Virus record (IMG/VR): IMGVR_UViG_3300031485_000046
Source: a virus
Reading direction: 5' to 3' (one strand)
DNA: 64,000 nt
Part shown: piece by piece, positions 3,099-61,930 of the stretch
Numbering within the stretch: the first letter of the stretch is position 1
How the letters are laid out: every line of letters starts with the position of its first letter
The notes under the pieces: model-generated
What the model saw: the letters and a program-made list of their open reading frames with translations, nothing else
Databases searched by the model: none
What the model was told of the DNA's origin: nothing
Position numbers and translations under genes: made by a program

Positions 3099-3607
3099 GG
3101 CAATACATCTCTCGCTTTCCATGCACAATAATACAACATACTTGTACAAGATGCCGCAGGAATATAATACCATGTAACAGATTTTTTGAATCGTTTTTCC
3201 TTTTCAATCTTGATAAAGTTAATGGATTGTAGAAATTTAATAACCTCCCGTATCTTTTTAAGCGGGAATAGCGTTCTCTCTTGCATTTTTCGTAAAGGGT
3301 ACGTAAACCAGATATTTCCTTGTTTATCTTCATGGTACTTATCTATCTCATCTAATTTTCGTTCTGCTGGATATAAATAGTAATGATCATACCCGGAATT
3401 TCCGTATGTGTCTTCCGCTATTTGTTTGGCTTCTATCATTAGTGAAATGATTACTGCCGTTTCAGTACCCATTATTTTAAGGATATTTGAGTCAATCATA
3501 ATCCTATCCATCCCACATAGATTCCATGCTACTTTTTCACGAATATCGGAAGTTATTTCCTTTCCATATACTTTCATAAATGTTTCCATATTCGGTAAAC
3601 TTTCCAT
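3086..3607 (-). CDS. hypothetical protein
   Basis: 173 aa ORF with strong SD (GGAAGGAGG) before ATG at 3607; first gene of minus-strand replication cluster. Confidence 0.6.
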   Translation of the reverse strand: MESLPNMETFMKVYGKEITSDIREKVAWNLCGMDRIMIDSNILKIMGTETAVIISLMIEAKQIAEDTYGNSGYDHYYLYPAERKLDEIDKYHEDKQGNIWFTYPLRKMQERTLFPLKKIREVIKFLQSINFIKIEKEKRFKKSVTWYYIPAASCTSMLYYCAWKARDVLPWKK

Positions 3608-3647
3608 TTATGTACCTCCTTCCGAAAAACCTTCAGGCCCTCCATTG

Positions 3648-3688
3648 TTAAAAAAGAGCGGAGGTTTTCAAAATTTGGCAACCTCCGC
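3648..3688 (-). terminator. putative rho-independent terminator (minus strand)
   Basis: 9-bp stem GCGGAGGTT/AACCTCCGC (3658..3666 / 3680..3688) with 13-nt loop, followed on minus strand by T-run; loop is long so moderate support. Confidence 0.4.
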
Positions 3689-4081
3689 CCTTCCCACGCC
3701 CCTAATTCGTGTTTTTGTTTTTTGGAACAATGATGGTGAAACTTTTGCTTTATTTACTCGAAACCTTTGTTGCAAGAATGACTGTTTCTGCTTGTCAGGA
3801 AATGAAAATCGTCATCATTTTCACATCCAAACTAGGATGATTACAATTATAAAATAGAATGCTGTTGTGCCGCACCTAGATCGGCCTAAGATTTTTGGTG
3901 AGTACATTCTATTTTATTTTTGTAAAATCCAAGCAGGCGTGTTCACTCTTTTGGAGCAAAACTACAGCCTCCTTTCATGTGTTTCAAGATATGGAGCTAA
4001 TCTCGCTTCGTGCGAGAATGCATATTATCATACAATAGAAATTTGTCCTAGTAAAGTTGTCGAAATATTGATAGCAACGGC

Positions 4082-4150
4082 AGAGAAACGTATAGCGCCT
4101 TGCGTTGCATACGCATGGCGGAGAAACGGTCGGCGGAGAAACGGAGAAAC
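4082..4150. repeat. iteron cluster GGCGGAGAAAC (2 full copies at 4117..4127 and 4132..4142 plus partial GAGAAAC copies)
   Basis: Direct 11-mer repeats spaced 15 nt in the 3608..4319 intergenic region beside replication genes; same 11-mer recurs at 16411..16449. Confidence 0.6.
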
Positions 4151-4319
4151 TCCGCTCCTAAATCTCTGCATGGATCTCCGGAGTGCCTTCTGGATTCCTG
4201 AAAACGGTAATACTGCTTACCTCAGAAGTTATACCTGTTCCAGAATCGTATACCTTTAAGCGGTGCTGGAACAAAGGTATTGCCAAATTGAGAAGCCTTA
4301 CCGCGTCTTCTAATTCCAT

Positions 4320-4574: not shown

Positions 4575-4859
4575 TTTTATACCTTCTCCTTTCTATTATG
4601 AAAAATAGACTGATAACCACACCTATTACTTCCACGGATTTCATGTTTCCTTGGTTGGTACGCTATAGCCTTTACTTTCAAGCTATAGTTTCATGTCTTT
4701 TTTGCTACCTAGTGATCCTGAGCGATTCTAGAGCCAAGGTTATACTTCTCGTTTACATCTATCCGATATATAATACACAGGTAATTCTTTTCCTTCAGAT
4801 GATGGAAAGAAAAAAAGTAGAATATATTAATCAGCTATATTTTTCACAAACGAATATGG

Positions 4860-4889: not shown

Positions 4890-5798
4890 CTAAATCCAAC
4901 CTAGCAATTCTTTCTTCAAGGCATCCGCGTCAGTTTGTGCCATATCACCGGGGTCACCTTGTATTTTTATAGAATAGGCATCCACGCCTCTAAGTATAAG
5001 TTCCGCAGTCAATTTTTCCGATTGTTTTATTGCCTGCGGATCATCATCGAATACCACAAATACTTTCTTGAACCTTTTGCTTATTTCCCTTACCTGATAT
5101 TTAGTGTATTTTATCCCAAAAGTAGCAATAGCACCGTACCCAAATCTCCATGCGTCTGTGACACCCTCCACACAAATGCAAGCATCATAATCCTTAATTG
5201 GTATCGCTTGGTAAAATACGTGCTTGTGTTTTACTATCTCTCGTTGTTCTGGACACGTTATATAGCGGAGGGAATGCTTGGCAGTAATATCCCTCGTCTG
5301 AAAAGACACAATACGATTTTCCCAATAGATGGGAATAACTAATCTGTGGGAGAATGATATTCCATCCATAAGACTGATAGGACCTGTGCCTTGTACATCC
5401 CATATCTTTTCGATTACCTCTGGATTAAACTTTCTTTTGGTAAGGTATCTTTTATGACGATCGTTCATTGGTGCAGTAGAAGGAGGCAGTCTGAATTTTT
5501 TCTGACCGACTCTTACTGTTACAGTAGATTTTACATGACTCTTACCTCCGTATTTCCTTGCTATTTCCTTTGCTTCTTTCTCTGATACGTGTATAAGTAG
5601 TGCTAGAGCTTTATGGGTCGCTTTCCAACCGCATCTCCAACAGACATAAAAATCATCCGCCATATTGTATCCTAAATGCATTCCTGGATTACCAATGCAA
5701 AAAGGGCAGGTCGTATTGACCCACCCTTCCCGACAATGTTTATGCCCTTCCGTAGCAAATGGTACGTTAAAATCCTTGTACAATTGGATTATATTCAC
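4890..5798 (-). CDS. DNA primase (zinc ribbon + TOPRIM)
   Basis: 302 aa; Cys4 zinc ribbon 'CPFC...CWRCG'; TOPRIM motifs 'EGVTDAW' and 'VVFDDDPQ', 'GDPGD'. Confidence 0.75.
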   Translation of the reverse strand: MNIIQLYKDFNVPFATEGHKHCREGWVNTTCPFCIGNPGMHLGYNMADDFYVCWRCGWKATHKALALLIHVSEKEAKEIARKYGGKSHVKSTVTVRVGQKKFRLPPSTAPMNDRHKRYLTKRKFNPEVIEKIWDVQGTGPISLMDGISFSHRLVIPIYWENRIVSFQTRDITAKHSLRYITCPEQREIVKHKHVFYQAIPIKDYDACICVEGVTDAWRFGYGAIATFGIKYTKYQVREISKRFKKVFVVFDDDPQAIKQSEKLTAELILRGVDAYSIKIQGDPGDMAQTDADALKKELLGWI

Positions 5799-6360
5799 GG
5801 CAATCCTCCTGCATTAGGGCTTTCAGTTCGTTTATCGTATCCCAAATTCTTTCGTGTGTCCAACCTTTCTCTCTGAGGATGTGGCGCAATTTCCCACGAA
5901 CTGCTCTACCGCTCATGCTACCATATTCTTCTTGTGCCTCTATAATCATATCATATACGATTTTGGCAGAAGGACTCATACGATCCATCTTTTCTTCCCA
6001 TTCTTCTTTAGCATCTACCGATTCAGGTGATGGTATAGTATATTCCATTTCTTCATCGAAAAAAGTACATGGAACCTTTTTCTGATGATACAGGTAATTG
6101 TTCAGTTTGGATTTTACGCACAAGGCAATCCAATTTATCAATGGTACGTTTTTATCCGCTTTGTATGTATTCAAGGCAACTGTATAGCCAACTGTAGCCT
6201 CAGAAAAAAGTTCCTCAAAATCTACTCCAGAGGTTTTATTGTACGACCAAGCTAATTTCCTTAGAAAGTTCTGGTACTTTTTATAGGTAGCGGTATCAGT
6301 CACAATATATTCCTCCTTTAGGATTTTCTGCTGTACTTGTGATGGTGTGGGCAGTAACAA
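5767..6360 (-). CDS. putative sigma-70-family-like transcription factor
   Basis: 197 aa; segment 'FLRKLAWSY..FEELFSEATVGYTVALNTYKADKNVPLINWIALCVKSKL' resembles sigma region 2; weak, motif-level only. Confidence 0.4.
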   Translation of the reverse strand: MLLPTPSQVQQKILKEEYIVTDTATYKKYQNFLRKLAWSYNKTSGVDFEELFSEATVGYTVALNTYKADKNVPLINWIALCVKSKLNNYLYHQKKVPCTFFDEEMEYTIPSPESVDAKEEWEEKMDRMSPSAKIVYDMIIEAQEEYGSMSGRAVRGKLRHILREKGWTHERIWDTINELKALMQEDCREYNPIVQGF

Positions 6361-6541: not shown

Positions 6542-8569
6542 CTACTCCGCATAGGAATTCAGCATCGCGGTAAGCATAGAGCCTTCAGGAACATCTTCCC
6601 CATCCAGTACCGCAGTAATCACCTTTCTCTTTTCATCTATCATTTCTGCCAACCTTTCTTCAATTGTGCCTCTGGGAAGAAGATACCAAATGTTGACAGC
6701 ATTTTTTTGTCCAATACGATTGCACCTGTCCTCCGCCTGATCTAGGAGCCCAGGTGTCCAAGGCAGTTCAAGGAAAGCTACGTTGTGGGAAGCGGTAAGT
6801 GTGATACCTACTCCAGCCGCCTTAATATTACCTACGAACAATCTTACGGAAGGGTCATTCTGAAATCTATCCACTATCTCTGCTCGTTTTTGGGCAGATA
6901 CAGACCCGTCTATTTTTACCGCAATCCCTGTATTGAATTCATCCATAATGGCTGATATGATTTCCTTGTGGACAGCAAACACTACAAGTTTATGGGAAGT
7001 ATCGTTCAGGAAATCTTTAATCCATTCAATCGCACCCTTTAATGCACCCTTAGCCGCCATAAACCTAAGAGCAGAAATCTGGGCAAGTGCTTCCGCATTA
7101 GAAGCCTTAGCCGCTGCCAACGCACCTTTATTTTCAGTAACCCAACCAATAAAATCTCTTTCTACCTTTCGATATTCCTTCTCATTAGACAAGGCTACAG
7201 GGATGACTGCTCTCTGCTTAGGTGGCAATTCTGTCAGGACTTCTTCTTTCCTTCTACGGATCATAACTCCCTGAAGTTTTTCGTACAATTCTTCGAGATT
7301 AGAAGCACCATTGTAATCCCAACCGAATCCATTGTGCTTGGCATCGCAGTACCGATTGGCAAAGTGCATGAAATTAGGAAAGAGATTAGGTTCTACCATG
7401 CGGATAGCATTGTATATCTCCTTAGGCCGATTGATTACGGGTGTTCCTGACATAGGAATAATATGAGGGATCCTTTTTGCCAATGCTTTCACGGCTTTGG
7501 TTCGGATAGTAGCATTGTTCATTATTGCCTGACATTCATCCAGTACCAGCACCTTAGGACTAAGGCTTGCAAGGTATTCTTGCCATCCTGCCACTATATC
7601 ATAATTAAGGATGATTATGTCAGGGTTATCAAGTTGGTATGCCTTTTTTCCTTCAAGTACAACTGCCTTTCTATCATCAGAAAGGCATCCTTTCACTTCT
7701 TTCAGCCAATTATATTTTACCACTGCTGGTGAAATGACAATAGTAGGCTTCAGTTCAGGATGGGCATGAATGTAGGCAAGGGCTTGAATAGTTTTGCCTA
7801 GTCCCATATCATCTCCAATTATTGCTTTACCATTCCGATGTTCCAAAAAAGCTACTCCCTGTGCTTGGAAAGGGTACAGCTTTTTCTTCAAACCTTCTAT
7901 ATTCGCTTCCTTCATATCATGGACAGATTTCTCTATCCTTGATATGATGTTCACCAGCCCTTCATCAATAGAGAAACCCCATTCTTTTACCTGTTTGATA
8001 GAGGCAGGCGAAGCAGAAGCAACCCAATACTTTTCGGTTTCCTTGCTGACAAATGACCTGTTAGGAAGCGATTTTACCTTCCCAAGCAGATCACCTGTAG
8101 GCTCGAAGGTTAGTTTCATCATATCGCCAGCGACTAATGTGGCGATACTTTTCTGAGGTTCCCGATTACCATCGTAGGATTTGTGAGTAGAAGGCACCTG
8201 AACAGTTCCCGCGTCCTCGTAGGCTATGAGAACAGATTTAGGGAACCAAGAATCAACAACCTTGCTTCTCGTAACACCTTTTGCCATCTCGATCTGTTCT
8301 GGCGTAAGGGATTCAAGAACAAGGTCACGCAAGCCCCAGTCCTTAAGACACTCAGGACCAATGCCAATGAGTTTAGAACCGGGATGGGTAAGTGCTCTTC
8401 CACATTTGGAACAACGAACTTCTGGATCAATCTCACCGTACCCGTATAGGTAAACTGCTCTTGCAGTTTCCCTAAGGATTGCGGCTTTGAAGTATATTGG
8501 TACACCTTTCTCTCTTGCTACTATGGGTCTGGTTCGATAGAACTTTGCAGGCAGCTCCATGAATGTCAT
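6542..8569 (-). CDS. SNF2-family DEAD-like helicase/ATPase with N-terminal zinc ribbon
   Basis: 675 aa; motif I 'DDMGLGKT', motif II 'VLVLDECQ', helicase C motif 'DQAEDRCNRIGQ'; N-terminal 'CSKCG...C' ribbon. Confidence 0.85.
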   Translation of the reverse strand: MTFMELPAKFYRTRPIVAREKGVPIYFKAAILRETARAVYLYGYGEIDPEVRCSKCGRALTHPGSKLIGIGPECLKDWGLRDLVLESLTPEQIEMAKGVTRSKVVDSWFPKSVLIAYEDAGTVQVPSTHKSYDGNREPQKSIATLVAGDMMKLTFEPTGDLLGKVKSLPNRSFVSKETEKYWVASASPASIKQVKEWGFSIDEGLVNIISRIEKSVHDMKEANIEGLKKKLYPFQAQGVAFLEHRNGKAIIGDDMGLGKTIQALAYIHAHPELKPTIVISPAVVKYNWLKEVKGCLSDDRKAVVLEGKKAYQLDNPDIIILNYDIVAGWQEYLASLSPKVLVLDECQAIMNNATIRTKAVKALAKRIPHIIPMSGTPVINRPKEIYNAIRMVEPNLFPNFMHFANRYCDAKHNGFGWDYNGASNLEELYEKLQGVMIRRRKEEVLTELPPKQRAVIPVALSNEKEYRKVERDFIGWVTENKGALAAAKASNAEALAQISALRFMAAKGALKGAIEWIKDFLNDTSHKLVVFAVHKEIISAIMDEFNTGIAVKIDGSVSAQKRAEIVDRFQNDPSVRLFVGNIKAAGVGITLTASHNVAFLELPWTPGLLDQAEDRCNRIGQKNAVNIWYLLPRGTIEERLAEMIDEKRKVITAVLDGEDVPEGSMLTAMLNSYAE

Positions 8570-12347: not shown

Positions 12348-12914
12348 ATGGCATATCGAAAATCAGGGAGACCTTTAGCAGTAGCAGAACCGTGGAATGA
12401 ATCAATCCCAGAAAGGGCGTATGATCTTTGCCTTCTAGGATTGCGTGATGCCGATTTAGCCACGGCATTCGGAGTTTCTATATATACCATTGATAAATGG
12501 AAACAGACTCATCCAGAGTTTAGAGAAGCACTATCCAGAGGTAAAGAACAAGCTGACGCTAAAGTGGCAGACGCACTTTACCATAAGGCAGTAGGCTATG
12601 CCCATAAAGCTGTGGACATCAGAATAGTTGACGGCGAGGTAGTGAAAATACCATACACTAAAATCTATCCACCAGATACTACTGCCTGCATATTCTGGTT
12701 GAAGAATAGGCAAAGACAGTACTGGACGGATACCAAGCAAAATGTTCATACTGGTACAGTGGGTGTGGAACATACTATGAGACGTCAACTTGACCTTTCT
12801 GATTTCTCCAAAGAAGAACTTGCCCTAGCAGAAAAACTAGCCTCTAGGATGCTTCAGGAGGGTACTCAGGATGCAGAGTTTACAGAAGAGGGGGAGAATG
12901 ACGGGGATGAGTAA
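12348..12914 (+). CDS. terS: terminase small subunit
   Basis: 188 aa directly upstream of and overlapping large terminase; HTH-like N-terminus 'LATAFGVSIYTIDKW' and 'IFWLKNRQRQYW' segment typical of small terminases. Confidence 0.65.
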   Translation: MAYRKSGRPLAVAEPWNESIPERAYDLCLLGLRDADLATAFGVSIYTIDKWKQTHPEFREALSRGKEQADAKVADALYHKAVGYAHKAVDIRIVDGEVVKIPYTKIYPPDTTACIFWLKNRQRQYWTDTKQNVHTGTVGVEHTMRRQLDLSDFSKEELALAEKLASRMLQEGTQDAEFTEEGENDGDE

Positions 12915-14466
12915 ATATGAACGTAAGGACGCCTTAAAACGCCAAAGAGAAAACATCATCCCAAAATCAGATAGGTTCCAAGCATTACTTTTGAACCCAT
13001 TGCAGATAAAAGCAGAAAAATGCCGTAGGTCCCTATTTGAATTTATGAAAGAATTCTGGCCAGAAGTATCCACAAGTGACCCTACATGGAATTGGCATCT
13101 AGAATACCTAGCTAACGAACTGGAAAGGATGATGTATAGAGTAGCAAACAGACAACCAAAAGAATACGACCTCATAATAAACATAAGCCCCGGTACCACA
13201 AAGTCTACCCTATGTTCCATAATGCTGAATGCATGGGTGTGGGCTAAATGGCCTTGGCTCCGATTCATCAACGCATCCTATTCTGGAGCCCTATCTCTGG
13301 AACATTCAGAATTGTGTCGTGACCTTATACGGTCAGAACGATACAAAAGGTTATTCCCGTATTTGGAAATAAAGCAAGACAAGGATACCAAAACTAACTT
13401 TAAAATTTTATATGATGAAGAGCGTCTGGATTCCATAACAGGCGAAGCATCTACACTAAAAAAGAGTGGTGGTAACAGATACTCCACCTCCGTAGGCGGC
13501 ACCTTGACTGGATTCCATGCTGATGTACTGTTAGTAGACGATCCATTGGATCCGCAAAGAGCTGTATCCGACGTGGAAGTCCTTAAAGCCAACACATGGA
13601 TAGATCAGACACTATCTACCAGAAAGGTAGATAAAGCGGTAACACCAACCATAATCATAATGCAAAGGCTCCATCAGAATGACCCTACGGGTTATCTGCT
13701 ATCCAAGAAGAATAAAAAGATAAAGCATATCTGCCTACCAGGTGAAATACGGAATTACAGGAAAAATTTGAAACCTAAAGCCCTAGCCAAGTATTATAAG
13801 GATGATCTGTTCGACCCTATAAGAATGCCATGGAAAGTCCTTGACGACCTAAGAGTAGACCTTGGTGAATTCGGGTATGCTTCCCAGATCGGCCAATCCG
13901 CAGTATCAGACAAGGGCAACTTATTCAAGGTAGAACACTTTCAAATCATCCATAGTATGGTACCAGACCCAGACATAGTAAGATCCATACGATACTGGGA
14001 CAAAGCCGGTACAGCTGGAGCTGGAGCATACACGGTGGGGGTACGAATGCTTGCATTGAATAATGGAAAATTCCTTATCACGGATGTTAAAAGAGGGCGG
14101 TGGTCCACAGAACAACGGGAAGCCATCATCAGACAGACTGCAGAAGCCGACGGTACAGACACAATAATCTGGCATGAACAAGAACCAGGTTCAGGCGGAA
14201 AAGAATCCGCAGAAGGCACTATAAGAAACCTAGCTGGATACACCACGTATGCAGATAGGGTAACTAGAAACAAGGAAATGAGAGCGGATCCATATTCAGT
14301 CCAAGTAAATAATGGTAACGTACTGTTACTATATGCTCCGTGGAACCAAGACTTCATAGAAGAGCACAGATACTTCCCAAATTCAACATATAAGGATCAG
14401 GTAGACGCAGCCTCAGGAGCGTTCTCTAAGGCAGTACGGAAAAAGATAGCCGGTGCGATAGGATAA
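12907..14466 (+). CDS. terL: terminase large subunit
   Basis: ~520 aa; ATPase P-loop-like 'NISPGTTKST', acidic 'LLVDDPLD', C-terminal nuclease-like region; SD AGGGGGAG before ATG 12907 (track ORF starts 12871). Confidence 0.8.
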   Translation: MSKYERKDALKRQRENIIPKSDRFQALLLNPLQIKAEKCRRSLFEFMKEFWPEVSTSDPTWNWHLEYLANELERMMYRVANRQPKEYDLIINISPGTTKSTLCSIMLNAWVWAKWPWLRFINASYSGALSLEHSELCRDLIRSERYKRLFPYLEIKQDKDTKTNFKILYDEERLDSITGEASTLKKSGGNRYSTSVGGTLTGFHADVLLVDDPLDPQRAVSDVEVLKANTWIDQTLSTRKVDKAVTPTIIIMQRLHQNDPTGYLLSKKNKKIKHICLPGEIRNYRKNLKPKALAKYYKDDLFDPIRMPWKVLDDLRVDLGEFGYASQIGQSAVSDKGNLFKVEHFQIIHSMVPDPDIVRSIRYWDKAGTAGAGAYTVGVRMLALNNGKFLITDVKRGRWSTEQREAIIRQTAEADGTDTIIWHEQEPGSGGKESAEGTIRNLAGYTTYADRVTRNKEMRADPYSVQVNNGNVLLLYAPWNQDFIEEHRYFPNSTYKDQVDAASGAFSKAVRKKIAGAIG

Positions 14467-14522
14467 ACATATAAAGGTAACCAAACAGATAACCCGTTTA
14501 GCCGTAGGCTATAGGGATAAAT

Positions 14523-14568
14523 AATGATACAGATAGATATGGATTCACCTATCTGTATCATTTTTTTA
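14523..14568 (+). terminator. rho-independent terminator downstream of terL
   Basis: Perfect 11-14 bp stem GATACAGATAG/CTATCTGTATC (14526..14536 / 14549..14559), 12-nt loop, TTTTTTT run 14561..14567. Confidence 0.75.
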
Positions 14569-15078
14569 TGGTAAAATACTCATACCGTAAGGTAAGCTAT
14601 GATATAGTAAAAATTGGGTAGTTTGGTAGTTATAGAGGTAGTCAGATAGAATAGGAAAAAAACTATCCATAAAAATAACATAGATAGGTAGACTAATATG
14701 GTATAATCTATAGAAACCTATATATCAATACAATCCATACTTTTACTATCCAAATAAGCTAATAATCCAATATAATCCAGATAATCCTAAACAGGTACAT
14801 ATAGTCAATTATAATAAGATACAGAAGAGGCAATCCCAAATCATACTAAGATGGTATACCAATATATCTGATACACCATATAACCTATCTCATGTAACCA
14901 TACGAATATGCATATGGATAAACAGTAAGAACGACATAATACAAATATACACCAATTCAATCAAGCTAATAGGAACATACGCAATAAGCTAATATCCGAT
15001 AAGCCTAAACAGGTACATAGTCAATATCAATATCTAGTCAATAGTAAACTAACATGCGAGCCTCCCTAAGGTAGGTCC

Positions 15079-15104
15079 CATAAATTGGTACCATAAATTG
15101 GTAC
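15079..15104. repeat. tandem 13-bp repeat CATAAATTGGTAC x2 (contains GGTACC palindrome)
   Basis: Two adjacent identical 13-mers read directly. Confidence 0.6.
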
Positions 15105-15439
15105 CATATCCTGGTTTACCAGCATGTGGTAACCTTACCTCCATCCTTACCATCACCTATACCACCATTCATCTGGATCTAATCTGCCTATACCCATATT
15201 TAATCTATGGTATTTAATAAATGGACACCATATTTCATAAATGGATAGCCAAAACCATACAAGCCATATCCTATTCCGTATTCCAATCCAATATATAGAT
15301 ACCTATACCTCCACTTCACCATGTACTGGGAAACCCAGTAATTGGTATAAAAAAATGGGACCTAAGTGTGGTAACCTAGATTTATCTATGTATGATCGTT
15401 TATATAGTGAAACCGAGATTTATACCTATTATTTTGTCC

Positions 15440-15900
15440 TCCACTATACCAATACGGTGGTATGCTGGATTGTAATCAGGAAATTCAAATACGGAGTAGA
15501 CCTCGATGTTTTACTATGTATATATAGAACGTATCTTTATAACAGTACCTACCAACTATCCACTACGGTGGTGTGTTGGATTGTACTTATAAATATGTGG
15601 AAAATAGAAAATGGGAGGTATTTCGATGTTTTACTATGTAGAACCGACGGTCTGTTTTTGTCAGGAATCTTCCAACTATCCACTACGGTGGTATATTGGG
15701 AGATACTTACCGAAACGTGTATGATATGAAATGGGAGGTATTTCGATGTTTTACTATGCATATATAGAGATATTGATTGGTTCCCATTTACCCTATATCT
15801 TACCCAGTATCCACTACGGTGGTATGTTGGGTAGTATTAATCCGTAGTATGGGTAGGTACTGTCTAGATTGTTTATCTATATATAGAGAATGAATAAGGT
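15440..15900. repeat. ~110-130 bp tandem repeat array, 4 units, each with blocks 'CGATGTTTTACTATG' and 'TATCCACTACGGTGGT'
   Basis: Block A at 15504, 15624, 15744; block B at 15451, 15560, 15680, 15811; track ORFs 15241..15729(+) and 15549..15761(-) merely translate the repeats. Confidence 0.75.
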
Positions 15901-16410
15901 GTGTCCATTCCCAAAATACCTCAGGCCCTCCATTATCTAGAATTTTCCCCAATTATAAAAATTTGTCAACCTCTGGCAGCTAAATGGAGTATAAGTATCC
16001 TACGGATACATGTATAAAAATGAAATCTTGGACACGTATCCAACGGATTATTTTATAAAAATGGGATTGGATTATTTTTATTTATACAGGTTCAATTTGA
16101 GAAAATGCACCTGTTTGAGTTTTCGATGGGTAATTGGTATAACAATAGTTGGATTATATAAAAACGGTATGGGATAATACCAGACCCGTTTTGAAGGCAT
16201 AAATTGCATAAATCAGTTCCGTTTATTTTTTTATTTCCTATGGATGGTACCGAATATTTCGAGGAGAAAAGGAATCCATAAAAATCATACGAGGTTTTTC
16301 ATGCTACCTAATCCAAAATACGTGGCGAATTTTCGGCTCCGTAATCGTTTTTCTAGAGGTGAGCGGTGAATTCATACCGGTAGAAAATGAGCGCCTTCTA
16401 GCGCACCGCT

Positions 16411-16449
16411 GGCGGAGAAACTCATTGGCGGAGAAACTGGCGGAGAAAA
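16411..16449. repeat. iteron cluster GGCGGAGAAA(C) x3
   Basis: Copies at 16411..16421, 16427..16437, 16439..16449; same 11-mer as at 4117..4142. Confidence 0.65.
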
Positions 16450-16457
16450 TGGATGGA

Positions 16458-16548
16458 TTTTTCTGTTTTTCTGTTTTTCTGATTGTTGTACATCGTTTCT
16501 ACATTCTACATTCTACATTCTACATTCTACATTCTACATTCTGCATTT
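16458..16548. repeat. microsatellite-like tandem repeats: TTTTTCTG x3 then TACATTC x6-7
   Basis: 8-mer repeats about 16458..16482; heptamer array 16500..16541 with a degenerate seventh unit to 16548. Confidence 0.7.
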
Positions 16549-17060
16549 CAGAAGAATGCATGTGGTACTTTATAAGATGCATGTATGCAATGTCATATGC
16601 ATCCTTAATTGTCTCCTGATTACTATACAATTATACACTATTCCTATTCCTGTTTCAATCGTAACAGATATTTTACTATTATATAATAATCTATAGTATT
16701 GTGTCATATTGTAGAATATTCTTATATTCATGAATATCAGACAAGCATAATGCAGAATGCATATTATACAATGCATTATTCAGCTATATTTTTCACAAGC
16801 ATTTTTTAGTAGTACAATGCATAATGCAGAATGCATCATGCATTATTCAATGAAACATTTCACAAGTGTTCATACAGTGCATACAATACATTCTGCATCA
16901 TGCATCATGCATTATTCAGCTATATTTTTCACAAGCATTTTTTAGTAGTACAATACATTCTGCAATATGCATTGTATAGCATGTATTATTCAATGAAACA
17001 TTTCACAAGTGTTACTGTATCCGAAGAGTATACAATGCATTTTTCAATGAAATATTTCAC
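16540..17060. repeat. ATGCAT-dense region with ~126-140 bp direct repeats (units contain 'TCAGCTATATTTTTCACAAGC' and 'TTCAATGAAACATTTCACAAG')
   Basis: About a dozen ATGCAT hexamers in ~500 bp; 19-mer TCAGCTATATTTTTCACAA at 16780 and 16906 (also 4831); track ORFs here are repeat translations. Confidence 0.65.
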
Positions 17061-17191
17061 AAGCGATACTGTGATCGAATTGTATCTGAATGACTATACA
17101 ATTCACTATTATTTTATAAAACTCTATAGTATTGCAGAATACAGTAGAATTCAGTAGAATTATATTAAGTGTATAGTCTTTTCATGCATAG

Positions 17192-17219
17192 TTGACATTC
17201 TATCGTAGAGTGCTATACT
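17192..17219 (+). promoter_or_regulatory. sigma70-like promoter TTGACA-N16-TATACT
   Basis: TTGACA 17192..17197, TATACT 17214..17219, ~120 nt upstream of small gene start 17337. Confidence 0.55.
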
Positions 17220-17336
17220 GTACTCGTAGCAAGCGAGCGAGCAAGTTCTTTGACAACTGAAGAAGCAAGCTCATAACAGAGTAACACTTCTTCAGAACAT
17301 ACGCGCACAACGTTGCGCAGAAAGAGAGTGTGTAGC

Positions 17337-17675
17337 ATGACAACGAGCAGCAAGAAGAACGTAAACAGTAAGAAAGCTGAAATAGTCGAACAGAAAGCAG
17401 TTGAAGTAAAGAAAGAAGAAGTAAGAGAAGCAAAGAAGATTAGCAATACTCAGAAGTGTGCTGATATGATCATGCAACTTGCGAAAGACGCTAAGTATAC
17501 TCGCAGTGAAATTTGTAATGCTGTTTCAGATGCACTAACAGCATTAAGCATAGTCACAGTAAAGACTATGCTTTCAGACTTGCAGAACAGCAAGTATGCA
17601 AGACGTTATAGCACTCATACTATCGCAGTAAACAAAGAAACAAAGATTGTAACAGTAGCAAGTGAGATAAAATGA
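17337..17675 (+). CDS. hypothetical small protein
   Basis: ATG 17337 with SD AAAGAGAG 8 nt upstream (track ORF starts at TTG 17313); 112 aa, Lys/Glu-rich N-terminus. Confidence 0.5.
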   Translation: MTTSSKKNVNSKKAEIVEQKAVEVKKEEVREAKKISNTQKCADMIMQLAKDAKYTRSEICNAVSDALTALSIVTVKTMLSDLQNSKYARRYSTHTIAVNKETKIVTVASEIK

Positions 17676-17884
17676 AGTATCAGCATGTTGAACGTTCGCA
17701 AGCTCTCGCAGTAAGTGACGTTGAAACTTTGCAGAATATTGCAAAAAGACGTCTGATCGATTTGAAACAGCTTGCAAGAGAAGCAGACTCTTTACTTGTC
17801 TTTTCAGTAATAAGAAATACATGTATTCAAATCGATCGAAGCATCGATGATGCACTTGAAAACGCAAGAAAATTACTGAAGTAG
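17672..17884 (+). CDS. hypothetical small protein
   Basis: 70 aa; ATGA start/stop overlap with preceding gene; followed by strong terminator. Confidence 0.5.
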   Translation: MKYQHVERSQALAVSDVETLQNIAKRRLIDLKQLAREADSLLVFSVIRNTCIQIDRSIDDALENARKLLK

Positions 17885-17889
17885 TACAA

Positions 17890-17940
17890 AAAAAGATAGT
17901 CAAGTATCTACAATTCGATACTTGACTATCTTTTTATCTC
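17890..17940. terminator. strong (bidirectional-capable) rho-independent terminator
   Basis: Perfect 15-bp stem AGATAGTCAAGTATC/GATACTTGACTATCT (17894..17908 / 17917..17931), 8-nt loop, flanking A-run and T-run. Confidence 0.8.
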
Positions 17941-17960
17941 ATTTGAAAGAGAGTGATACT

Positions 17961-18284
17961 ATGTTAGATAATCAGTATGAATTACATCAAAAGATACAAA
18001 AAATAGAACACAAGCATATCAGATTACATGCAAGCAATTGTATGTACAAATTGATGAATATTCAATTGTTACTTGAAGAACAGATTAATCTACTCATTTC
18101 TGATATTGTAGCAAATGATGCTTCTGTTAGTGAAATATTGCTAACAGAACGTCAAAGTACATTTGATAATGAACTTTTTGCGATAACGACAAAAGAAGAT
18201 AGAAAAGCAATAGCAATACTGCATAATACTATAATCGATAGTATGAATGCAGTAAGAAAGACAATCATCTATACAGACGAATAA
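17961..18284 (+). CDS. hypothetical small protein
   Basis: ATG 17961 with SD GAAAGAGAG 7 nt upstream; track start (TTG 17922) lies inside the terminator stem so was moved. Confidence 0.5.
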   Translation: MLDNQYELHQKIQKIEHKHIRLHASNCMYKLMNIQLLLEEQINLLISDIVANDASVSEILLTERQSTFDNELFAITTKEDRKAIAILHNTIIDSMNAVRKTIIYTDE

Positions 18285-18323
18285 AATTACACAATAGAGC
18301 ATAATTGATAGCAATTGAATAGA

Positions 18324-18361
18324 AAAGAGTAGTCAATACTAGACTACTCTTTTCTTTTTTA
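18324..18361 (+). terminator. rho-independent terminator
   Basis: 11-bp stem AAAGAGTAGTC/GACTACTCTTT (18324..18334 / 18342..18352), 7-nt loop, T-run to 18360. Confidence 0.7.
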
Positions 18362-18745
18362 TTCATGCATACAATGCATGATGCATCCTGCACTATGCAT
18401 AGTATAAGCGTTCATAGTAGCATTTGATAACATAACACTACACTATTTATTACAATTAGACAATATACTACAATATGATAGTGTAGTGTGTATTGTCTAT
18501 TCTATACACTACAATATAGACAAGTATACACTACAATATAGACAAGTATAGAATAGAGTATAATAATCTATAGTATGCTACACTATATAGCAATATAATA
18601 TAATAATATATAATTGTATAGTAAAGCAGATACAATTCAATACAATGACTGCGCTAGTATACAATGCATGATGCATGATGCATCGTACACAATGCATAAT
18701 GTAAAATCGATTTTACACGTTGCAGAATGCATGCTGGCTCCTGGC

Positions 18746-18902
18746 CCCCTCTAAAATTGTGACAAATTTTTCTGGATATTAAAATGGGTAATCCATTATT
18801 TTCTAAAGCATATTCATTATTTATTCTACGTATCTTTCACACACCCCTCGTAAAATTGCTACTGATTTTTCCCAATACTAAAGTGGGTAATCCATTATTT
18901 TC
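18746..18902. repeat. two ~58-bp direct repeats sharing 'AAAATTG..TTTTTC..TAAA.TGGGTAATCCATTATTTTC'
   Basis: Copies at 18746..18803 and 18844..18902; inverted partial copy 'TAATGGATTA..ACCCA' near 18961; partial copy near 19110. Confidence 0.6.
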
Positions 18903-19426
18903 GATATATCTATTCTGTATGACTGTATAGATAGTATAAGATGCAGTATCCAATTTTAACTAATGGATTAATATACCCAATTTACTCATACTATACGTAT
19001 CTTCATGGATCCGTTTTCTTTCGTCTTTATTTTTACCATACCCCGTCATTCTGTATGAATTTATCCAAAAATAACCGCATAAATATTTTGTAAAAATTTA
19101 TATGGGAGTTAAAATGGGTTGATTAGATCAGTAGAGAGGTTAGATCACACTAGGGAGTTAGATACGATGCATCCTAGCCCGGATCCTGATAGGCTAGGAT
19201 GCATATAGAAACTATGTTTGTCGTAATATATCTTGAAAACGCATCAGATTCGTTTCATACTGTGCGATTTCCTTGCTTATGGAAGCTGTTCGTTCTGTTT
19301 CAGACGTTGTTTCTATCGTCTAGAGTGAAAAAGATCGAATACCGTGCAAGGATTTAACGTGTCATGCCATCCCATTCGGTTGTTCCCTCCGTCCTTGCGA
19401 CTTTCCTATAAGGGATGGAAACCGGG

Positions 19427-19645
19427 TCATTTCGCCCGCTCCTCCCAGAACCGTCTGCGTCGCTCCTCCCTGTGACGCTTGATATTCTCCCGCACCCTCT
19501 GCGTGCGGGGCGGGAACGTGTTCAGATGGGTCAGCACCGGCTCCACGCTGACAGCTCTGCCGAATTCCCTCTCCCATTCCTGGGCGTAGATTTCCTCGTA
19601 GGATAACATTTCGCGAAATCTGAGCCCCGTGCATCGTCCGCTCAT
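19427..19645 (-). CDS. small basic hypothetical protein inside a GC-rich islet
   Basis: 72 aa ORF starting 1 nt after kdsB stop; local GC visibly about 60% versus ~40% surroundings; no recognised motif. Confidence 0.3.
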   Translation of the reverse strand: MSGRCTGLRFREMLSYEEIYAQEWEREFGRAVSVEPVLTHLNTFPPRTQRVRENIKRHREERRRRFWEERAK

Positions 19646-20436
19646 TCCTTACCCTCCTTTTTTTCTATAATTTCATCATATTCATTTTCTTTACCAGAGT
19701 TTATTATACAACGAACAGCTTCCAAATCAGCAGGAGTATCTACACTAGGTCCAACTTTTTTTGCTCTTGTTATTTCTACTTTAATGGAAAAATCATGTTC
19801 TAATATTCTGAGCTGTTCCAGTGATTCTGCTGATGCCAAAGGTGTTTGTGGCATTTTGGCATAATAATGGATTAAGAAACGTCTAGTAAATCCATAAATT
19901 CCTATATGTCGGTAGATGGGATATACTTCTTCCGGATCTCTAATAAAAGGGATAGGAGACCTACTGAAATATAAAGCATCTCCATTTATTCTGAATGCCA
20001 CTTTTACTACCGATGGATCATTGATAGTAGCGGTATCTGTAATAAGGGCACATATCGTAGCAGATTCCGTAGCCCTATTTTCAGTTTTATAAAATAATGA
20101 TATTACTTCATCAATCATACAAGGATTAAGTAATGGTTCATCCCCTTGTATGTTTATCACTATATTATTATTAGAGAATTTTTTAGCTATTTCCACAACT
20201 CTACTAGTTCCGTTTGTATGATTTGGAGAAGTTAGCATAGCTTCTCCACCGAAATTATTTACAGCCTGCACGATTCTTTCATCGTCAGTAGCTACAATCA
20301 ACCGGTCAAGTAAAGTAGATCGTGAGGCTCGCTCGTACACTCTCTGGATCATTGTTTTTCCGCATATATCAGCTAGAGGTTTACCGGGGAGCCTTGTAGA
20401 ATTGTATCTAGCGGGGATAACTCCTAAAGTTATCAT
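19642..20436 (-). CDS. kdsB: 3-deoxy-manno-octulosonate cytidylyltransferase (CMP-Kdo synthetase)
   Basis: 264 aa; near-collinear with KdsB hallmark segments 'VIPARYNSTRLPGKPL', 'VATDDERI', 'QGDEPL', 'ALYFSRSPIP', 'HIGIYGF', 'EQLRILE', 'VDTPADLE' (compared from memory with E. coli KdsB). Confidence 0.85.
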   Translation of the reverse strand: MITLGVIPARYNSTRLPGKPLADICGKTMIQRVYERASRSTLLDRLIVATDDERIVQAVNNFGGEAMLTSPNHTNGTSRVVEIAKKFSNNNIVINIQGDEPLLNPCMIDEVISLFYKTENRATESATICALITDTATINDPSVVKVAFRINGDALYFSRSPIPFIRDPEEVYPIYRHIGIYGFTRRFLIHYYAKMPQTPLASAESLEQLRILEHDFSIKVEITRAKKVGPSVDTPADLEAVRCIINSGKENEYDEIIEKKEGKE

Positions 20437-20455
20437 TATTTATCACTTCCATTCA

Positions 20456-20602
20456 TTATTTAAGATTATGTGGTACTTTTTTGTCAAGTTCCAGTAATTT
20501 TGCATTAACTTTTTCTAGTTCAGCCATGAGAAATATTACCATATCGCATCTATCAGGTAGTATTTTTTCTTTACCTGTTACTTTCCTCCATAATTCTACC
20601 AT
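20456..20602 (-). CDS. small protein (48 aa), paralog of C-terminal domain of 21367..21669 product
   Basis: Own translation: MVELWRKVTGKEKILPDRCDMVIFLMAELEK... aligns with '...AVRLWRKTTGKDFIMPDRCDLVVYLMEELDK' (about 20/38 identical); below the ORF-track size cutoff. Confidence 0.4.
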   Translation of the reverse strand: MVELWRKVTGKEKILPDRCDMVIFLMAELEKVNAKLLELDKKVPHNLK

Positions 20603-20658
20603 CGGGATTTGTCCAAAGTTTCTTGTTATTGTCGTATTTCTATCCAGTTCTATAATAC

Positions 20659-21195
20659 TTATTCAGAAAGGTTGTCATGTTCACTTGCATTTTCCTCCTT
20701 TGTTGGAAGTGGTACCGGTAACTTTTCTTTTATGCAATTCATAAGGATTGTATATTTCCTTTCTTGCATCATTTCTAATGCTTTTACCATCGTTTTTCCC
20801 CAACCATTACATGAATATTTTCCTAAGTCTTTAATGTAGGCAACGTATCCTTTCATTCCGTTTAGTTCTGTAGTCATTGGCTGAATTGTAATGGAATACG
20901 GAATTTTCATCAATTCATCTATAGTGGGATCCTCGTTTCTGTTTATATTTTGTGAAATTACCGACATATTTATCATGTCAAACCTATTAGACATACGGTC
21001 AGGTACGTTAATCGTAGCACCACATCCGGAGCATCGCAAAATTAAGGAATCTAATTCTGCAATCATTTTATATGGATTTGGATACGCATACTGTATTTGG
21101 TCAAGAGTGTCAATTGGTTTAGCGCAAAGTGGGCAAATTATTTGTCTACCGTCACAAAACAATACATAACGCCCTTGTCCTATAGAAAGACTCAT
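20659..21195 (-). CDS. hypothetical protein with N-terminal zinc ribbon and HicB-like C-terminal region
   Basis: 178 aa; CxxC..CxxC; C-terminal 'YSITIQP..GYVAYIKDLGKYSCNGWGKTMVKALEMM' resembles HicB/UPF0150 pattern (weak). Confidence 0.5.
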   Translation of the reverse strand: MSLSIGQGRYVLFCDGRQIICPLCAKPIDTLDQIQYAYPNPYKMIAELDSLILRCSGCGATINVPDRMSNRFDMINMSVISQNINRNEDPTIDELMKIPYSITIQPMTTELNGMKGYVAYIKDLGKYSCNGWGKTMVKALEMMQERKYTILMNCIKEKLPVPLPTKEENASEHDNLSE

Positions 21196-21389
21196 TCTTC
21201 CATCTCCTTTTTAAGCAAAGCCTTCTGCATTTTCCCCAAAGCCGCAAACAACGTATCTTTACAACCCGTATAGATATACAGACTGCCCACAACTTTACCA
21301 TCAACGAGTACAGTATATGTAGGAGATTTGATTGGCCCATGGTTCTCTTCGAGTATTATCACTATTTCATTCCCCCTTTTCCATTTCAC
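21192..21389 (-). CDS. hypothetical small protein
   Basis: 65 aa ORF overlapping neighbours by 4 and 23 nt. Confidence 0.4.
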   Translation of the reverse strand: MKWKRGNEIVIILEENHGPIKSPTYTVLVDGKVVGSLYIYTGCKDTLFAALGKMQKALLKKEMEE

Positions 21390-35819: not shown

Positions 35820-36151
35820 TGGCAGAGACATTTTCCTATTCGCCTCTCTATGCGTATCAAAGAGGATTAAATCATAATGTCCTGATAACGGAGTTTGAAT
35901 CAGGAAAAGAGCAACGTAAGTATTTAGGAGTTCGTGCTAGGACGTGGACACTCGGATTCCGAGCCGACGTTGCTACCATCCAGGGAATCGAGGATTTCTA
36001 CAATGCCCGTGGTGGTAATTACGAGGCGTTCAACTGGACACCTCCGGGAGGAAGCGCCATTTCCGTCCGGTTTGAGGAAGGGAGCCTGTCGGTCAGTTAT
36101 TACGGCTCTCAGTACGGCGAATGTGAAGTCACATTGAGGGAGATATTATGA
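35819..36151 (+). CDS. minor tail protein, lambda gpM-like
   Basis: 110 aa; 'FYNARGGNYEAFNWTPP' matches lambda M 'FLEEHGGWKSFLWTPP' pattern (from memory). Confidence 0.65.
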   Translation: MAETFSYSPLYAYQRGLNHNVLITEFESGKEQRKYLGVRARTWTLGFRADVATIQGIEDFYNARGGNYEAFNWTPPGGSAISVRFEEGSLSVSYYGSQYGECEVTLREIL

Positions 36152-40525: not shown

Positions 40526-40742
40526 AACGTTACTTTCGGGGCAAGGTTGCTCCGTAACGGTGTAGTAATCAACACAAGGGACGCTTTTTATTACTCTTTA
40601 TATCAAGGGATGTCTCCGGTTGTTTTTAGTTTTGTTGATACAGGGGCATCGACAGGATCAACTACTTATAAGATACAGGTTAAGCGGGTTCGGTCTCTGG
40701 ACTGTCATGTTTCGGCATCGGAGAGGACGATGGTGGTTCATT

Positions 40743-42699: not shown

Positions 42700-42702
42700 G
42701 AG

Positions 42703-61928: not shown

Positions 61929-61930
61929 TT

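Follow-up and report, generated by a model that had tools for sequence, protein, structure and literature searches.

The hub described here, a 4.9-kb stretch (14467-19354) that separates the terminase genes from portal in an uncultivated phage, is 82% non-coding. ORFs of at least 150 codons cover 10% of it, as against 76% of the window (the whole 64-kb stretch of DNA analysed), and none was found from 15730 to 19641; thus, the sparse coding noted for ∼2.9 kb after terL by the initial annotation was borne out. No long ORF emerged in the hub when TAG, TGA or TAA was recoded, and the ‘MFYY’ micro-ORFs were not conserved. DNA conservation in relatives breaks off abruptly at 19354, so the GC-rich islet that follows (19355-19645) was assigned to an accessory module specific to the window. 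This islet is missing from relatives; on its minus strand is a 72-aa ORF, the start of which overlaps by ATGA with the stop of the cytidylyltransferase gene. The region first proposed, 14467-19640 with the islet, therefore holds up to 19354 and not beyond.

We saw that repeated 11-mers were ∼20 times denser in the hub than in any other stretch of the window: 273 direct and 144 inverted, whereas 100 other stretches of the same size had means of 11.8 direct (sd 8.6, maximum 40) and 13.8 inverted (sd 8.8, maximum 48). All repeat families listed by the initial annotation were present where it had placed them. The three least stable (easiest melted) 100-bp segments of the 64 kb all fall within the hub (Table 1), as do 20 of the window’s 20 instances of TGCA phased at 7 bp and 26 of its 43 ATGCAT copies (3.3 expected).

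Table 1. Features of the hub and of the partner locus heading the replication operon; positions are those of the window
Feature	Position	Strand	Remarks
Partner locus, intergenic region heading replication operon	3608-4157	-	outside hub
Terminator-like hairpin of partner locus	3654-3692		followed by T6 run on transcribed (minus) strand
Leader of partner locus		-	∼350 nt
Promoter-like site of partner locus	∼4010-4045	-	
Second iteron cluster, heading replication operon	4078-4150		same orientation as hub cluster
terL end	14466		
terL terminator	14519-14572	+	18-bp-arm hairpin and T-run; left boundary of hub; conserved in L015
Conserved module ending in extended -10 promoter-like site	14609-14718	+	in window, L015, L018
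Third least stable 100 bp	14645-14744		overlaps module 14609-14718
Extended -10 promoter-like site TGGTATAAT	14699-14707	+	
A/C-rich mosaic segment	14719-15039		sub-modules present, missing or reordered among lineages
22-bp repeat GATAAKCCTAAACAGGTACATA	14780 and 14998		within A/C-rich segment
Conserved block	15040-15379		contains invariant AAACTAACATGCGAGCCTCCCTAAGGTAGGT
GGTACCATAAATT, 2.7 copies	15074-15108		in conserved block
Hairpin TACTGGG-AAA-CCCAGTA	15324-15340		stem kept, loop varies
Tandem units of ∼120 bp, 4 copies	15439-15870		within segment 15380-15885
Paralogue of replication-operon control region	15880-16470	-	colinear with 4165-3600
Hub iteron cluster	16379-16449	+	TGGCGGAGAAAC at 16410, 16426; TGGCGGAGAAAA at 16438
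Degenerate fourth hub iteron GGTAGAAAAT	16379-16388		
TTTTTCTG, 3 copies	16458-16481	+	T-rich, beside iterons
TTCTACA, 7.3 copies	16497-16547	+	T-rich, beside iterons
Left array	16549-17075	+	five units of ∼67 bp: TGCA heptads (NATGCAK) and ATTATTCA...WTTTCACAAG
Second least stable 100 bp	16629-16728		left array
AT-rich segment through cassette promoter	17083-17219	+	
10-bp repeat AGAATTCAGT, 2.6 copies	17136-17161	+	L018, L022 have a 20-bp repeat there
Conserved upstream element AAGTGTATAGTCTTTTC	between AGAATTCAGT repeat and cassette promoter	+	
Cassette promoter	TTGACA 17192-17197; TG-n-TATACT 17214-17219	+	16-nt spacer; near-consensus, conserved
P112 gene, 112 aa	17337-17675	+	lysine-rich tail, conserved helical domain with beta-hairpin
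70-aa protein gene	17672-17884	+	conserved in relatives
Terminator after 70-aa gene	17890-17935	+	
107-aa protein gene	17961-18284	+	variable cassette slot; other small genes in relatives
Terminator after 107-aa gene	18321-18355	+	invariant
Right array	18361-18740	+	inverted relative to left array
TGCA heptads of right array	18361-18402 and 18657-18735		
22-bp tandem repeat of right array	18503-18550		
Least stable 100 bp	18525-18624		right array
Perfect palindrome TGTAAAATCGATTTTACA	18700-18717		kept in relatives via symmetric double change
Promoter-like repeat units	18745-19115	+	TTGTGA/TTGCTA/TTGTAA, 16-17 nt, TAAARTGGG
-10-like motif of these units	18780, 18879, 19110	+	
59-bp direct repeats	18745 and 18844		
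Conserved tail of hub	19118-19357	+	
TTAGATC-type repeats	19123-19164		2 exact copies and 1 variant
13-bp-stem hairpin	19167-19204	+	one compensatory pair
Near-invariant long hairpin	19266-19357	+	∼92 nt

In the left part of the hub, each ∼120-bp tandem unit consists of a TTTAYCTATGTATATATAG-like box, a dyad and AAATGGGAGGTATTTCGATG; the dyad reads CCAAC-N3-CCAC-TACG-GTGG-N3-GTTGG or an ATACC/GGTAT variant, its TACGG is invariant, and there are 3-4 unit copies depending on lineage. The T-rich tandem repeats at 16458-16547 likewise have lineage-specific copy numbers, around a conserved core GATTGTTGTACATCGTTTCTACAT.

The cassette of three small genes with a consensus promoter and two terminators was confirmed at 17192-18355. 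P112 had 114 database matches at 60-100% identity, its own sequence counted; no family or fold matched the cassette proteins, including P112 in family and fold comparisons and the 70-aa protein in the family search. The cassette is a possible early host-takeover unit. The TGCA-heptad arrays on its two sides probably bind a regulator, possibly P112 itself.

Relatives from other metagenomes have the identical layout at 75-95% DNA identity: terS-terL, ∼2.9 kb of sparse DNA, the small-gene cassette, a further ∼1.1 kb of sparse DNA, variable minus-strand genes and portal. The hub is confirmed as a conserved feature of the clade, neither an artefact nor a one-off insertion; in more distant relatives (59% terL identity) portal directly follows terL. 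The blocks 15912-15976, 19088-19115 and 19266-19357 are near-invariant amid neighbouring DNA diverged to 77%, the second of them, the last promoter-like unit, being invariant in all lineages.

Five of the seven occurrences of the iteron core CGGAGAAAC (0.43 expected) fall into two clusters on the same strand, one in the hub and one heading the replication operon. The count of three hub iterons of the TGGCGGAGAAAC family refers to 16410-16449; the fourth, degenerate copy extends the cluster to 16379. The hub cluster is conserved in seven relatives (L018, L022, L030, L035, L038, L046 and L048), and both clusters are kept in relatives, including a distant one whose neighbouring protein is just 49% identical; their spacing is 12.3 kb in the window and 12.6 kb in the L018/L052 contig.

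Judged by sequence, the two clusters lie within ∼550 bp of colinear, paralogous DNA: the global alignment score was 58.5 against 9 ± 5.4 (maximum 27) in 100 shuffles, and words common to both loci include TCAGGCCCTCCATT and AGAATGCATATTAT. Read on the minus strand, the hub paralogue presents iterons (3 + 1), a GTATGAT...TTCTC promoter-like stretch, GGAGGTTGNCAAATTTT and AATGGAGGGCCTGA, the last (15912-15976) near-invariant among relatives. At the partner locus a gene for a 173-aa protein comes after the terminator-like hairpin. The replication operon encodes an O-like initiator, a DnaC/IstB-like loader and a DnaB-like helicase; the phage also has its own polymerase, clamp, clamp loader, SSB and primase. 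The putative initiator (1683-3173) was called O-like/DnaD-like from one PHROG profile (E = 6e-11), with zero matches in Pfam and NCBIfam; tblastn against 50,697 phage records gave no match, so it is not detectably homologous to gp38 of phage SPP1.

The second copy of the iteron cluster and its control region suggests a second replication-origin-like site. Given the iterons, the paralogy and the close parallel with SPP1, we interpret the hub as an initiator-binding, oriR-like locus to which the cassette is attached; with a probability of about one half it would be the principal non-coding control region in a lytic ∼64.6-kb phage with its own replisome, made of an oriR-like core and an autonomously transcribed cassette. 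The analysis shows the anatomy and its conservation, the paralogy and the motif statistics; from there on, protein binding, origin firing and the cassette's role are inferred. The encoded initiator, or alternatively the 173-aa protein beside it, would bind both iteron clusters. Binding in the hub could open nearby AT-rich DNA and let the DnaC-like loader and DnaB-like helicase enter, making the hub a second origin; or a tight complex there could stall or titrate replication, leading to copy control or to a switch towards concatemer synthesis, in line with a proposal made for SPP1 oriR. The small genes would be transcribed autonomously, joined to this core and bracketed by the inverted TGCA-heptad arrays.

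A least-stable 100-bp segment ∼180 bp from the hub iterons supports the origin reading; however, that it does not abut them counts against it, as does a GC-skew minimum nearer 22 kb, the skew tracking transcription direction. The origin model would explain at most ∼1 kb of the 4.9 kb, leaving the 120-bp units, TGCA heptads, 59-bp units and 92-nt hairpin unaccounted for.

One could propose instead that the hub is purely transcriptional, with the iterons and the TGCA/ATGCAT motifs as operators through which phage regulators coordinate the cassette with the replication operon; the hub copy would then soak up regulator, or supply a non-coding transcript with a second regulated promoter, and replication would neither start nor stall there. 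The partner-locus iterons could be plain transcription-factor operators, as a promoter-like site follows immediately downstream of them, and then a long leader with a terminator-like hairpin at its end; ATGCAT coincides with the start predicted for that promoter and also adjoins the cassette -35. Sigma-70-like sites number 60 over 12-22 kb (42 expected), many of them in the hub, which has conserved promoter-like units at 14699-14707 and 18757-19115. Many initiators repress their own promoter via their iterons; this proposal is compatible with the origin reading, not exclusive of it. However, to have iterons at an initiator/loader/helicase operon and a further cluster far away, next to AT-rich DNA, is the classic origin layout, as in SPP1 (PMC6316719), and the hub copy of the leader has no gene behind it. 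We consider this explanation unlikely.

The hub could also be mainly a locus of long or small non-coding RNAs that work as antisense regulators, sponges or structured RNAs. One such RNA might start at TGGTATAAT (14699) and run across the A/C-rich segment and then the 120-bp units; another might run from the invariant promoter at 19088 across the 92-nt hairpin. Conserved promoter-like sites do face into conserved non-coding DNA; three of the four substitutions in the near-invariant hairpin stay paired as G-U on the plus strand and none on the minus strand; the 19167-19204 hairpin has its compensatory pair, and folding z-scores of the tail hairpin analyses were -2.3 and -3.1. Still, the hub yielded no Rfam family at gathering or relaxed thresholds and no tRNA or tmRNA. 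For 15040-15520 the covariation term was ∼0 on both strands with many broken pairs, in a test of low power given only about four independent lineages; the candidate RNAs have no terminator behind them, and the G-poor DNA at 14.7-15.3 kb has little folding potential. An RNA locus is thus quite improbable as the main role; of the ncRNAs suggested earlier, known families are absent and the 92-nt hairpin stays as a candidate RNA or boundary element.

Of the functions offered for a ‘control hub’ by the initial annotation, replication origin gained support and a packaging or terminal region did not. According to the latter, the hub would hold a direct terminal repeat or packaging-initiation region of T7, T5 or SPO1 type, with arrays flanking the repeat and small early genes inside, which assemblers collapse into a circular map. 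The hub adjoins terS-terL, and its small genes have a strong promoter of host type and strong terminators; T7 carries short-repeat arrays beside its terminal repeats. Assemblies do break in the hub, and a collapsed terminal repeat would likewise yield a circle. However, contig ends from many samples are scattered over the repeats at 15.0-16.9 kb and 18.4-19.5 kb with no common coordinate or pile-up, and the repeats themselves explain the breaks; the long contigs L018, L019 and L020, all three from other samples, read through the hub without interruption and two (L015, L016) span it across a run of N. A Logan contig and the gap add up to 64,611 bp, 141 less than the source contig (64,752 bp), which fits a circular assembly with k-mer overlap. 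Furthermore, terL has a Terminase_6C domain, a type common among headful packagers. While these data may still be compatible with a short terminal repeat, a genome end in the hub is very improbable.

Functionless filler between two late operons, in which decayed duplicates and recombination-prone, satellite-like repeats are tolerated, would account for variable copy numbers in several repeat families, shuffled or missing sub-modules at 14.6-15.0 kb and duplication of another locus, but it is hardly credible with position and architecture kept in every sampled lineage, the three (near-)invariant blocks, palindromes surviving via symmetric double changes and the tight packing normal for phage genomes (6% non-coding DNA in total in SPP1; PMC6316719).

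Among known systems, the hub resembles several in part. Its dense direct and inverted repeats, host-type promoters and small genes in a mainly non-coding stretch are reminiscent of genome end regions. Those of T7 and T5 are largely non-coding, with early-region/injection-stop repeats, strong host-type promoters and small early genes; the hub, unlike them, is internal on a circular assembly, with no evidence for a genome end there. The omega-repressor operators of pSM19035 are 7-bp WATCACW repeats; here too runs of a 7-bp unit, direct and inverted, lie around promoters and flank a small-gene unit, but the heptad is NATGCAK, the setting is a lytic phage and no ribbon-helix-helix protein was detected.

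In iteron origins of plasmids and plasmid-prophages (P1 oriR/incA, F, R6K, RK2) the initiator binds clusters of short direct repeats, the first adjoining the rep promoter and the second able to act in copy control, and melting takes place in short repeats, AT-rich or 7-mer, that adjoin the iterons. This phage shares with them two short-direct-repeat clusters, predicted to bind the initiator, and AT-rich/7-mer repeats beside the iterons. The iterons here are only 9-12 bp, and the ORFs scanned had no sign of plasmid maintenance: no partition ATPase or integrase was found among those of the replication arms and 11.4-23.3 kb, up to the late operon at 23.4-44.6 kb.

The oriR-like reading has its closest parallel in SPP1, which has two origins ∼13 kb apart, each of direct repeats with an AT-rich unwinding element; oriR shares with three moron genes a segment that has transcription signals on both sides and sits in the midst of the late genes, and gp38 binding at oriR was proposed to stall the replication fork (PMC6316719). 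The phages differ in several respects: the initiator here has no detectable homology to any isolate phage (tblastn, 50,697 records), and polymerase, clamp and clamp loader are encoded by this phage itself. The SPP1 segment follows the portal gene, whereas the hub is placed between terL and portal; the hub is also several times larger, with at least five further repeat families, including the inverted TGCA-heptad arrays around the cassette; and the first iteron cluster is upstream of the operon rather than inside the initiator gene. Nevertheless, in both phages a segment bracketed by transcription signals interrupts the late morphogenesis gene order and combines a second origin (putative here) with three small genes of unknown function (genes 8-10 in SPP1). 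In both, direct repeats lie beside AT-rich DNA and recur in or near the initiator gene, at a first origin (likewise putative here), ∼13 kb off on the circular map in SPP1 and 12.3 kb here, and an operon encodes initiator, helicase loader and DnaB-type helicase (gp38, gp39 and gp40 in SPP1).

Phage genomes are mostly gene-packed. The window belongs to a tailed phage, and 10% of its hub, the conserved, repeat-dense and mostly non-coding region between terL and the portal gene (14467–19354), falls within stop-to-stop ORFs of at least 150 codons vs 76% window-wide, which bears out the sparsely coding stretch noticed after terL in the initial annotation. The window's longest run without such ORFs is 15730–19641, and the first credible gene 3′ of the terL terminator starts at 17337. 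The three small genes with a consensus promoter and two strong terminators are present as described, as is every one of the repeat families named earlier.

Coordinates of features in the hub, in the neighbouring genes and at the replication operon
Feature	Position	Strand	Remarks
terS	12348–12914		PHROG and Pfam profiles
terL	12871–14466		PHROG and Pfam profiles
terL terminator, hairpin/T-run	14519–14572		
TGGCGGAGAAAC iterons, hub	16410, 16426, 16438		third as ...AAAA; plus one degenerate copy; cluster span 16379–16449
TGGCGGAGAAAC iterons, operon side	4116, 4131		variants at 4078, 4142; cluster span 4078–4150
Cassette promoter, TTGACA-16-(TG)TATACT	17192–17219		upstream of the small genes
Small genes (cassette)	17337–17675, 17672–17884, 17961–18284	+	
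Strong terminators	17890–17935, 18321–18355		
Portal gene	21848–23308		

Genes hidden by stop-codon reassignment were ruled out. With TAG or TGA recoding there was no ORF longer than ~200 codons in 14.6–17.2 or 18.3–19.3 kb; TAA recoding gave two open frames (285 and 240 codons), which lacked conservation and were regarded as spurious. Also, lineages are separated in the hub by indels with lengths not divisible by 3. The micro-ORFs suggested earlier did not hold up: the SD-ATG ‘MFYY’ candidates lose their ATG in two related contigs (L018 and L022), and the conserved dyad falls in differing frames. A 162-aa ORF (15241–15729), predicted by gene callers in relatives, is ruled out by 10-nt indels between lineages, and a tblastn search of all window ORFs against the region found no pseudogene remnants. 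At the DNA level the window had no match to isolate phages. RNA genes of known families, a check proposed in the initial annotation, were absent as well: Rfam gave no match at gathering scores and, at E-values up to 1, just four miRNA hairpins judged to be chance; ARAGORN found no tRNA or tmRNA gene.

The same layout was seen on long contigs from other metagenomes that encode homologues of the 112-aa product of the first small gene (L015–L025, L040, L046 and L047). It runs from a minus-strand helicase gene and small genes through terS–terL, 2.7–2.9 kb without credible genes (gene callers give just one or two small, non-conserved ORFs there in relatives), the cassette of three small genes, 1.1–1.4 kb of sparsely coding DNA and variable small minus-strand genes to the portal gene. 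Hub non-coding DNA aligns with that of relatives at 75–95% identity. In distant relatives, with terL 57–59% identical, the portal gene lies directly 3′ of terL; thus, the hub defines a sub-clade.

Conservation ends at 19354 in all lineages; the region delimited at first as 14467–19640 therefore stands up to this point, while the GC-rich islet 19355–19645 lies beyond it. The islet contains a 72-aa minus-strand ORF with an ATGA overlap with the cytidylyltransferase stop. The islet, the cytidylyltransferase gene and a HicB-like gene are an accessory module (19355–21200) specific to the window's lineage: it is missing from relatives L015–L024, and one other sample (SRR23823810, L141) shares the HicB-like protein along with a cytidylyltransferase that is nearly identical. 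The best genome matches of the cytidylyltransferase (52–53% identity) were in Synergistales, Synergistaceae and Fretibacterium, a weak hint as to the host.

The hub contains 273 directly repeated and 144 inverted 11-mers; in 100 other windows of equal size the means were 11.8 (maximum 40) and 13.8 (maximum 48), respectively. It holds 26 of the window's 43 ATGCAT copies (3.3 expected), and all 20 of the window's 7-bp-phased TGCA sites are located at 16751–16968 and 18375–18728, on both flanks of the cassette. Nearest-neighbour energies place all of the three least stable 100-bp segments of the 64 kb (18525–18624, 16629–16728 and 14645–14744) in the hub, with three further hub segments among the top nine.

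Iterons of the TGGCGGAGAAAC type form two clusters, one in the hub and the other in a 550-bp intergenic region (3608–4157) heading a minus-strand replication operon. Their core, CGGAGAAAC, has seven copies in the window vs 0.43 expected; five of the seven are within the two clusters, all on the same strand. As in iteron origins, a short direct repeat is present in at least three same-orientation copies in the hub cluster, and the repeats recur beside the gene of the putative initiator. The operon encodes a 173-aa protein, a 496-aa protein, a DnaC/IstB-like loader and (in relatives) a DnaB-like helicase. The 496-aa protein matched only two profiles, PHROG ‘replication initiation O-like’ (6e-11) and ‘DnaD-like’ (1.5e-4); a tblastn search of 50,697 phage records with this protein came back empty at a 1e-5 cut-off.

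Read on the minus strand, 16470–15880 is colinear with 4165–3600. The shared order comprises three iterons and a spaced fourth, a GTATGAT...TTCTC promoter-like stretch, GGAGGTTGNCAAATTTT and AATGGAGGGCCTGA; the global alignment of the two loci scored 58.5, with shuffles at 9 ± 5.4 (maximum 27). Both clusters are kept in relatives, the operon-side one in L051–L053, L059 and L060, and even in a phage with just 49% identity in the adjacent protein. The distance between the clusters is 12.3 kb in the window and 12.6 kb in the L018/L052 contig. T-rich tandem repeats of 8-mers and 7-mers (16458–16547) abut the hub iterons, and the 100-bp segment predicted to be the window's second least stable (16629–16728) lies ~180 bp from them.

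A replication origin is thus the best supported branch of the interpretation first offered for the hub, given that the iterons recur at the replication operon and that the two loci are paralogous. We put its probability at about 0.5, as we infer both initiator binding and origin firing. DnaA boxes are no more than a lead: WTTTCACAAG is similar to the relaxed box, but there was no enrichment of TTWTNCACA (8 vs 7 expected).

On the operon side, a promoter-like site is followed by a leader of ~350 nt and then by a terminator-like hairpin (3654–3692, within 3608–4157, minus), with a T6 run 3′ on the minus (transcribed) strand, ~40 nt ahead of the first-gene ribosome-binding site. The same arrangement is found in L052 and L053, and it looks like attenuation or antitermination control. 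L053 also has, at 6607–8522, a DnaB-like helicase gene with an intein bearing a LAGLIDADG endonuclease domain. The hub motif ATTAWTCAGCTATATTTTTCACAA recurs, with one mismatch, as a 24-nt copy at 4826–4849 beside the primase-gene terminator; on the minus strand this copy reads TTGTGA-17-TATATT and is promoter-like.

The closest rival, a purely transcriptional control hub, is compatible with the origin reading; the hub's transcription signals are as follows. The cassette promoter and the adjoining upstream element AAGTGTATAGTCTTTTC are kept in all lineages. Directly upstream is a 10-bp repeat in 2–4 copies; in the L018/L022 lineage a 20-bp repeat takes its place, which suggests a binding site that differs by lineage. 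Right of the cassette there are three promoter-like units, each ending in TAAARTGGG, which the rest of the window lacks; the final unit does not vary between lineages.

Cassette genes 1 and 2 are conserved, and the third slot varies between relatives. TGCA heptads, AT-rich blocks and longer segments of one cassette flank recur as inverted copies on the other, and the phased heptads recur in eight relatives. In an Omega-type operator system, heptads run contiguously in both orientations at promoters and are bound by a ribbon-helix-helix protein. Here the TGCA sites on both flanks have a 7-bp phasing; neither a ribbon-helix-helix domain nor any other DNA-binding family turned up in the three cassette proteins, which had no match in Pfam, PHROGs, NCBIfam, PADLOC or PDB sequences. 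The 112-aa protein (P112) had 114 database matches at 60–100% identity, its own sequence included. IMG/VR searches with P112 or its alignment found no relatives in that collection, and those with two hub repeat words gave chance 17-mer matches only. The full-length structure model of P112 is poor (pLDDT 56), and a Foldseek search with it found nothing; a ‘winged-helix’ fold is unsupported, since the PDB profile search was empty.

Several conserved elements are neither genes nor iterons. Block 15040–15980 has invariant islands (e.g. 15912–15976) and a small hairpin (15324–15340) with the stem kept and the loop variable; RNA covariation on both strands of 15040–15520, with only ~two effective lineages to draw on, had a term close to zero and many broken pairs. 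Each 120-bp unit has a dyad centred on an invariant TACGG, in which stem sequences vary by copy and symmetry is retained. Right of the cassette, an 18-bp perfect palindrome (18700–18717) is preserved in relatives by a symmetric double change. A hairpin of ~92 nt (19266–19357) is near-invariant in the relatives compared; three of four substitutions are G–U paired on the plus strand, and none of the four on the minus strand.

One could speculate that the hub is more than a spare origin, namely an organised nucleoprotein centre of a lytic phage. P112, a new small-protein family, would coat the inverted TGCA-heptad arrays flanking its own cassette, and other factors would bind the dyads of the 120-bp units; the bound proteins would loop or insulate the DNA and might thereby couple early transcription to the loading of the initiator at the iterons and to the changeover to concatemer replication. 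Alternatively, the invariant unit 19088–19357 might encode a new phage regulatory RNA. We consider this wider reading, in either version, unlikely.

A genome terminus, terminal repeat or pac/cos region has no support, the indirect signs being a circular assembly and the scatter of relatives' contig ends. The Logan assembly of the same sample has a 60,630-bp contig running from window position 15638 leftwards, across the window ends, to ~19620; a second contig of 2,545 bp covers 16925–19469. The longer contig plus the 3,981-bp gap makes 64,611 bp, i.e. the 64,752-bp source contig minus 141, a difference consistent with a k-mer overlap in a circular assembly. Ends of short relatives' contigs are scattered over 15.0–16.9 kb and 18.4–19.5 kb, as repeats would produce and a fixed genome end would not, and in L015 a run of N covers exactly the iteron/heptad part. 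The hub breaks short-read assemblies; therefore, fragmentation or mis-joining is to be expected there in many genomes of this clade.

Outside the hub, the portal protein had its best isolate-virus match in haloarchaeal Hardycor1 (36% identity), and terL in Bacteroidota phages; the virion module is thus either mosaic or very deep-branching. An archaeal host, for which the portal match and one homologue binned to Methanolobus could speak, was rejected on account of a sigma-70-type factor, DnaB/DnaC-type proteins, Shine-Dalgarno sites and intrinsic terminators. The sigma-70-family factor (5767–6360, minus; Pfam Sigma70_r2 above threshold) is weakly similar to ECF and Firmicutes sporulation sigma factors. 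As the hub motifs were absent elsewhere in the window, they were rejected as its general promoters.

The family-B DNA polymerase is split over adjacent ORFs, 58071–59342 and 56263–58107 (56263–59342, minus); clamp, clamp loader, SSB, UvsX/UvsY-like, SbcCD-like and RusA-like proteins are encoded as well. Genes for queuine tRNA-ribosyltransferase/DpdA-like, GTP cyclohydrolase and QueC-like proteins (60957–63188, minus), of the 7-deazaguanine DNA-modification type, indicate that the phage probably modifies guanines in its own DNA. A GC-rich island at 35000–43000 (0.52–0.55 vs ~0.40 elsewhere), with a 1156-aa ORF (37055–40525), is probably a hypervariable tail-fibre region; the nearly complete L015-bearing contig ends within it, at ~35–39 kb by coordinate estimate.

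The ~4 kb of conserved non-coding DNA amounts to ~6% of the genome and implies functions, at the level of DNA or RNA, overlooked by gene-centred annotation. For the origin reading, the closest known system is phage SPP1, in which ~13 kb of the circular map separates two origins, both with gp38-bound direct repeats beside an AT-rich unwinding element (PMC6316719). SPP1 oriR lies in a segment ‘bracketed between transcriptional signals’, with three moron genes, that breaks the conserved order of late genes; gp38 bound there was proposed to stall the replication fork, triggering concatemer synthesis (PMC6316719). The anatomy of the hub appears to agree with this description point for point; however, the 496-aa initiator candidate has no detectable homology to gp38 or to any isolate phage, which makes the hub locus an analogue of the SPP1 origins and not a family member. 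Should the iteron locus prove to be a second origin or fork-control site, CGGAGAAAC would be a concrete DNA motif to go with the protein candidates, and the two-origin logic of SPP1 would reach an unrelated, uncultivated clade of anaerobic digester or landfill-type metagenomes that encodes its own replisome. By this analogy, the hub may be viewed as an SPP1-type second-origin segment, greatly enlarged and elaborated.
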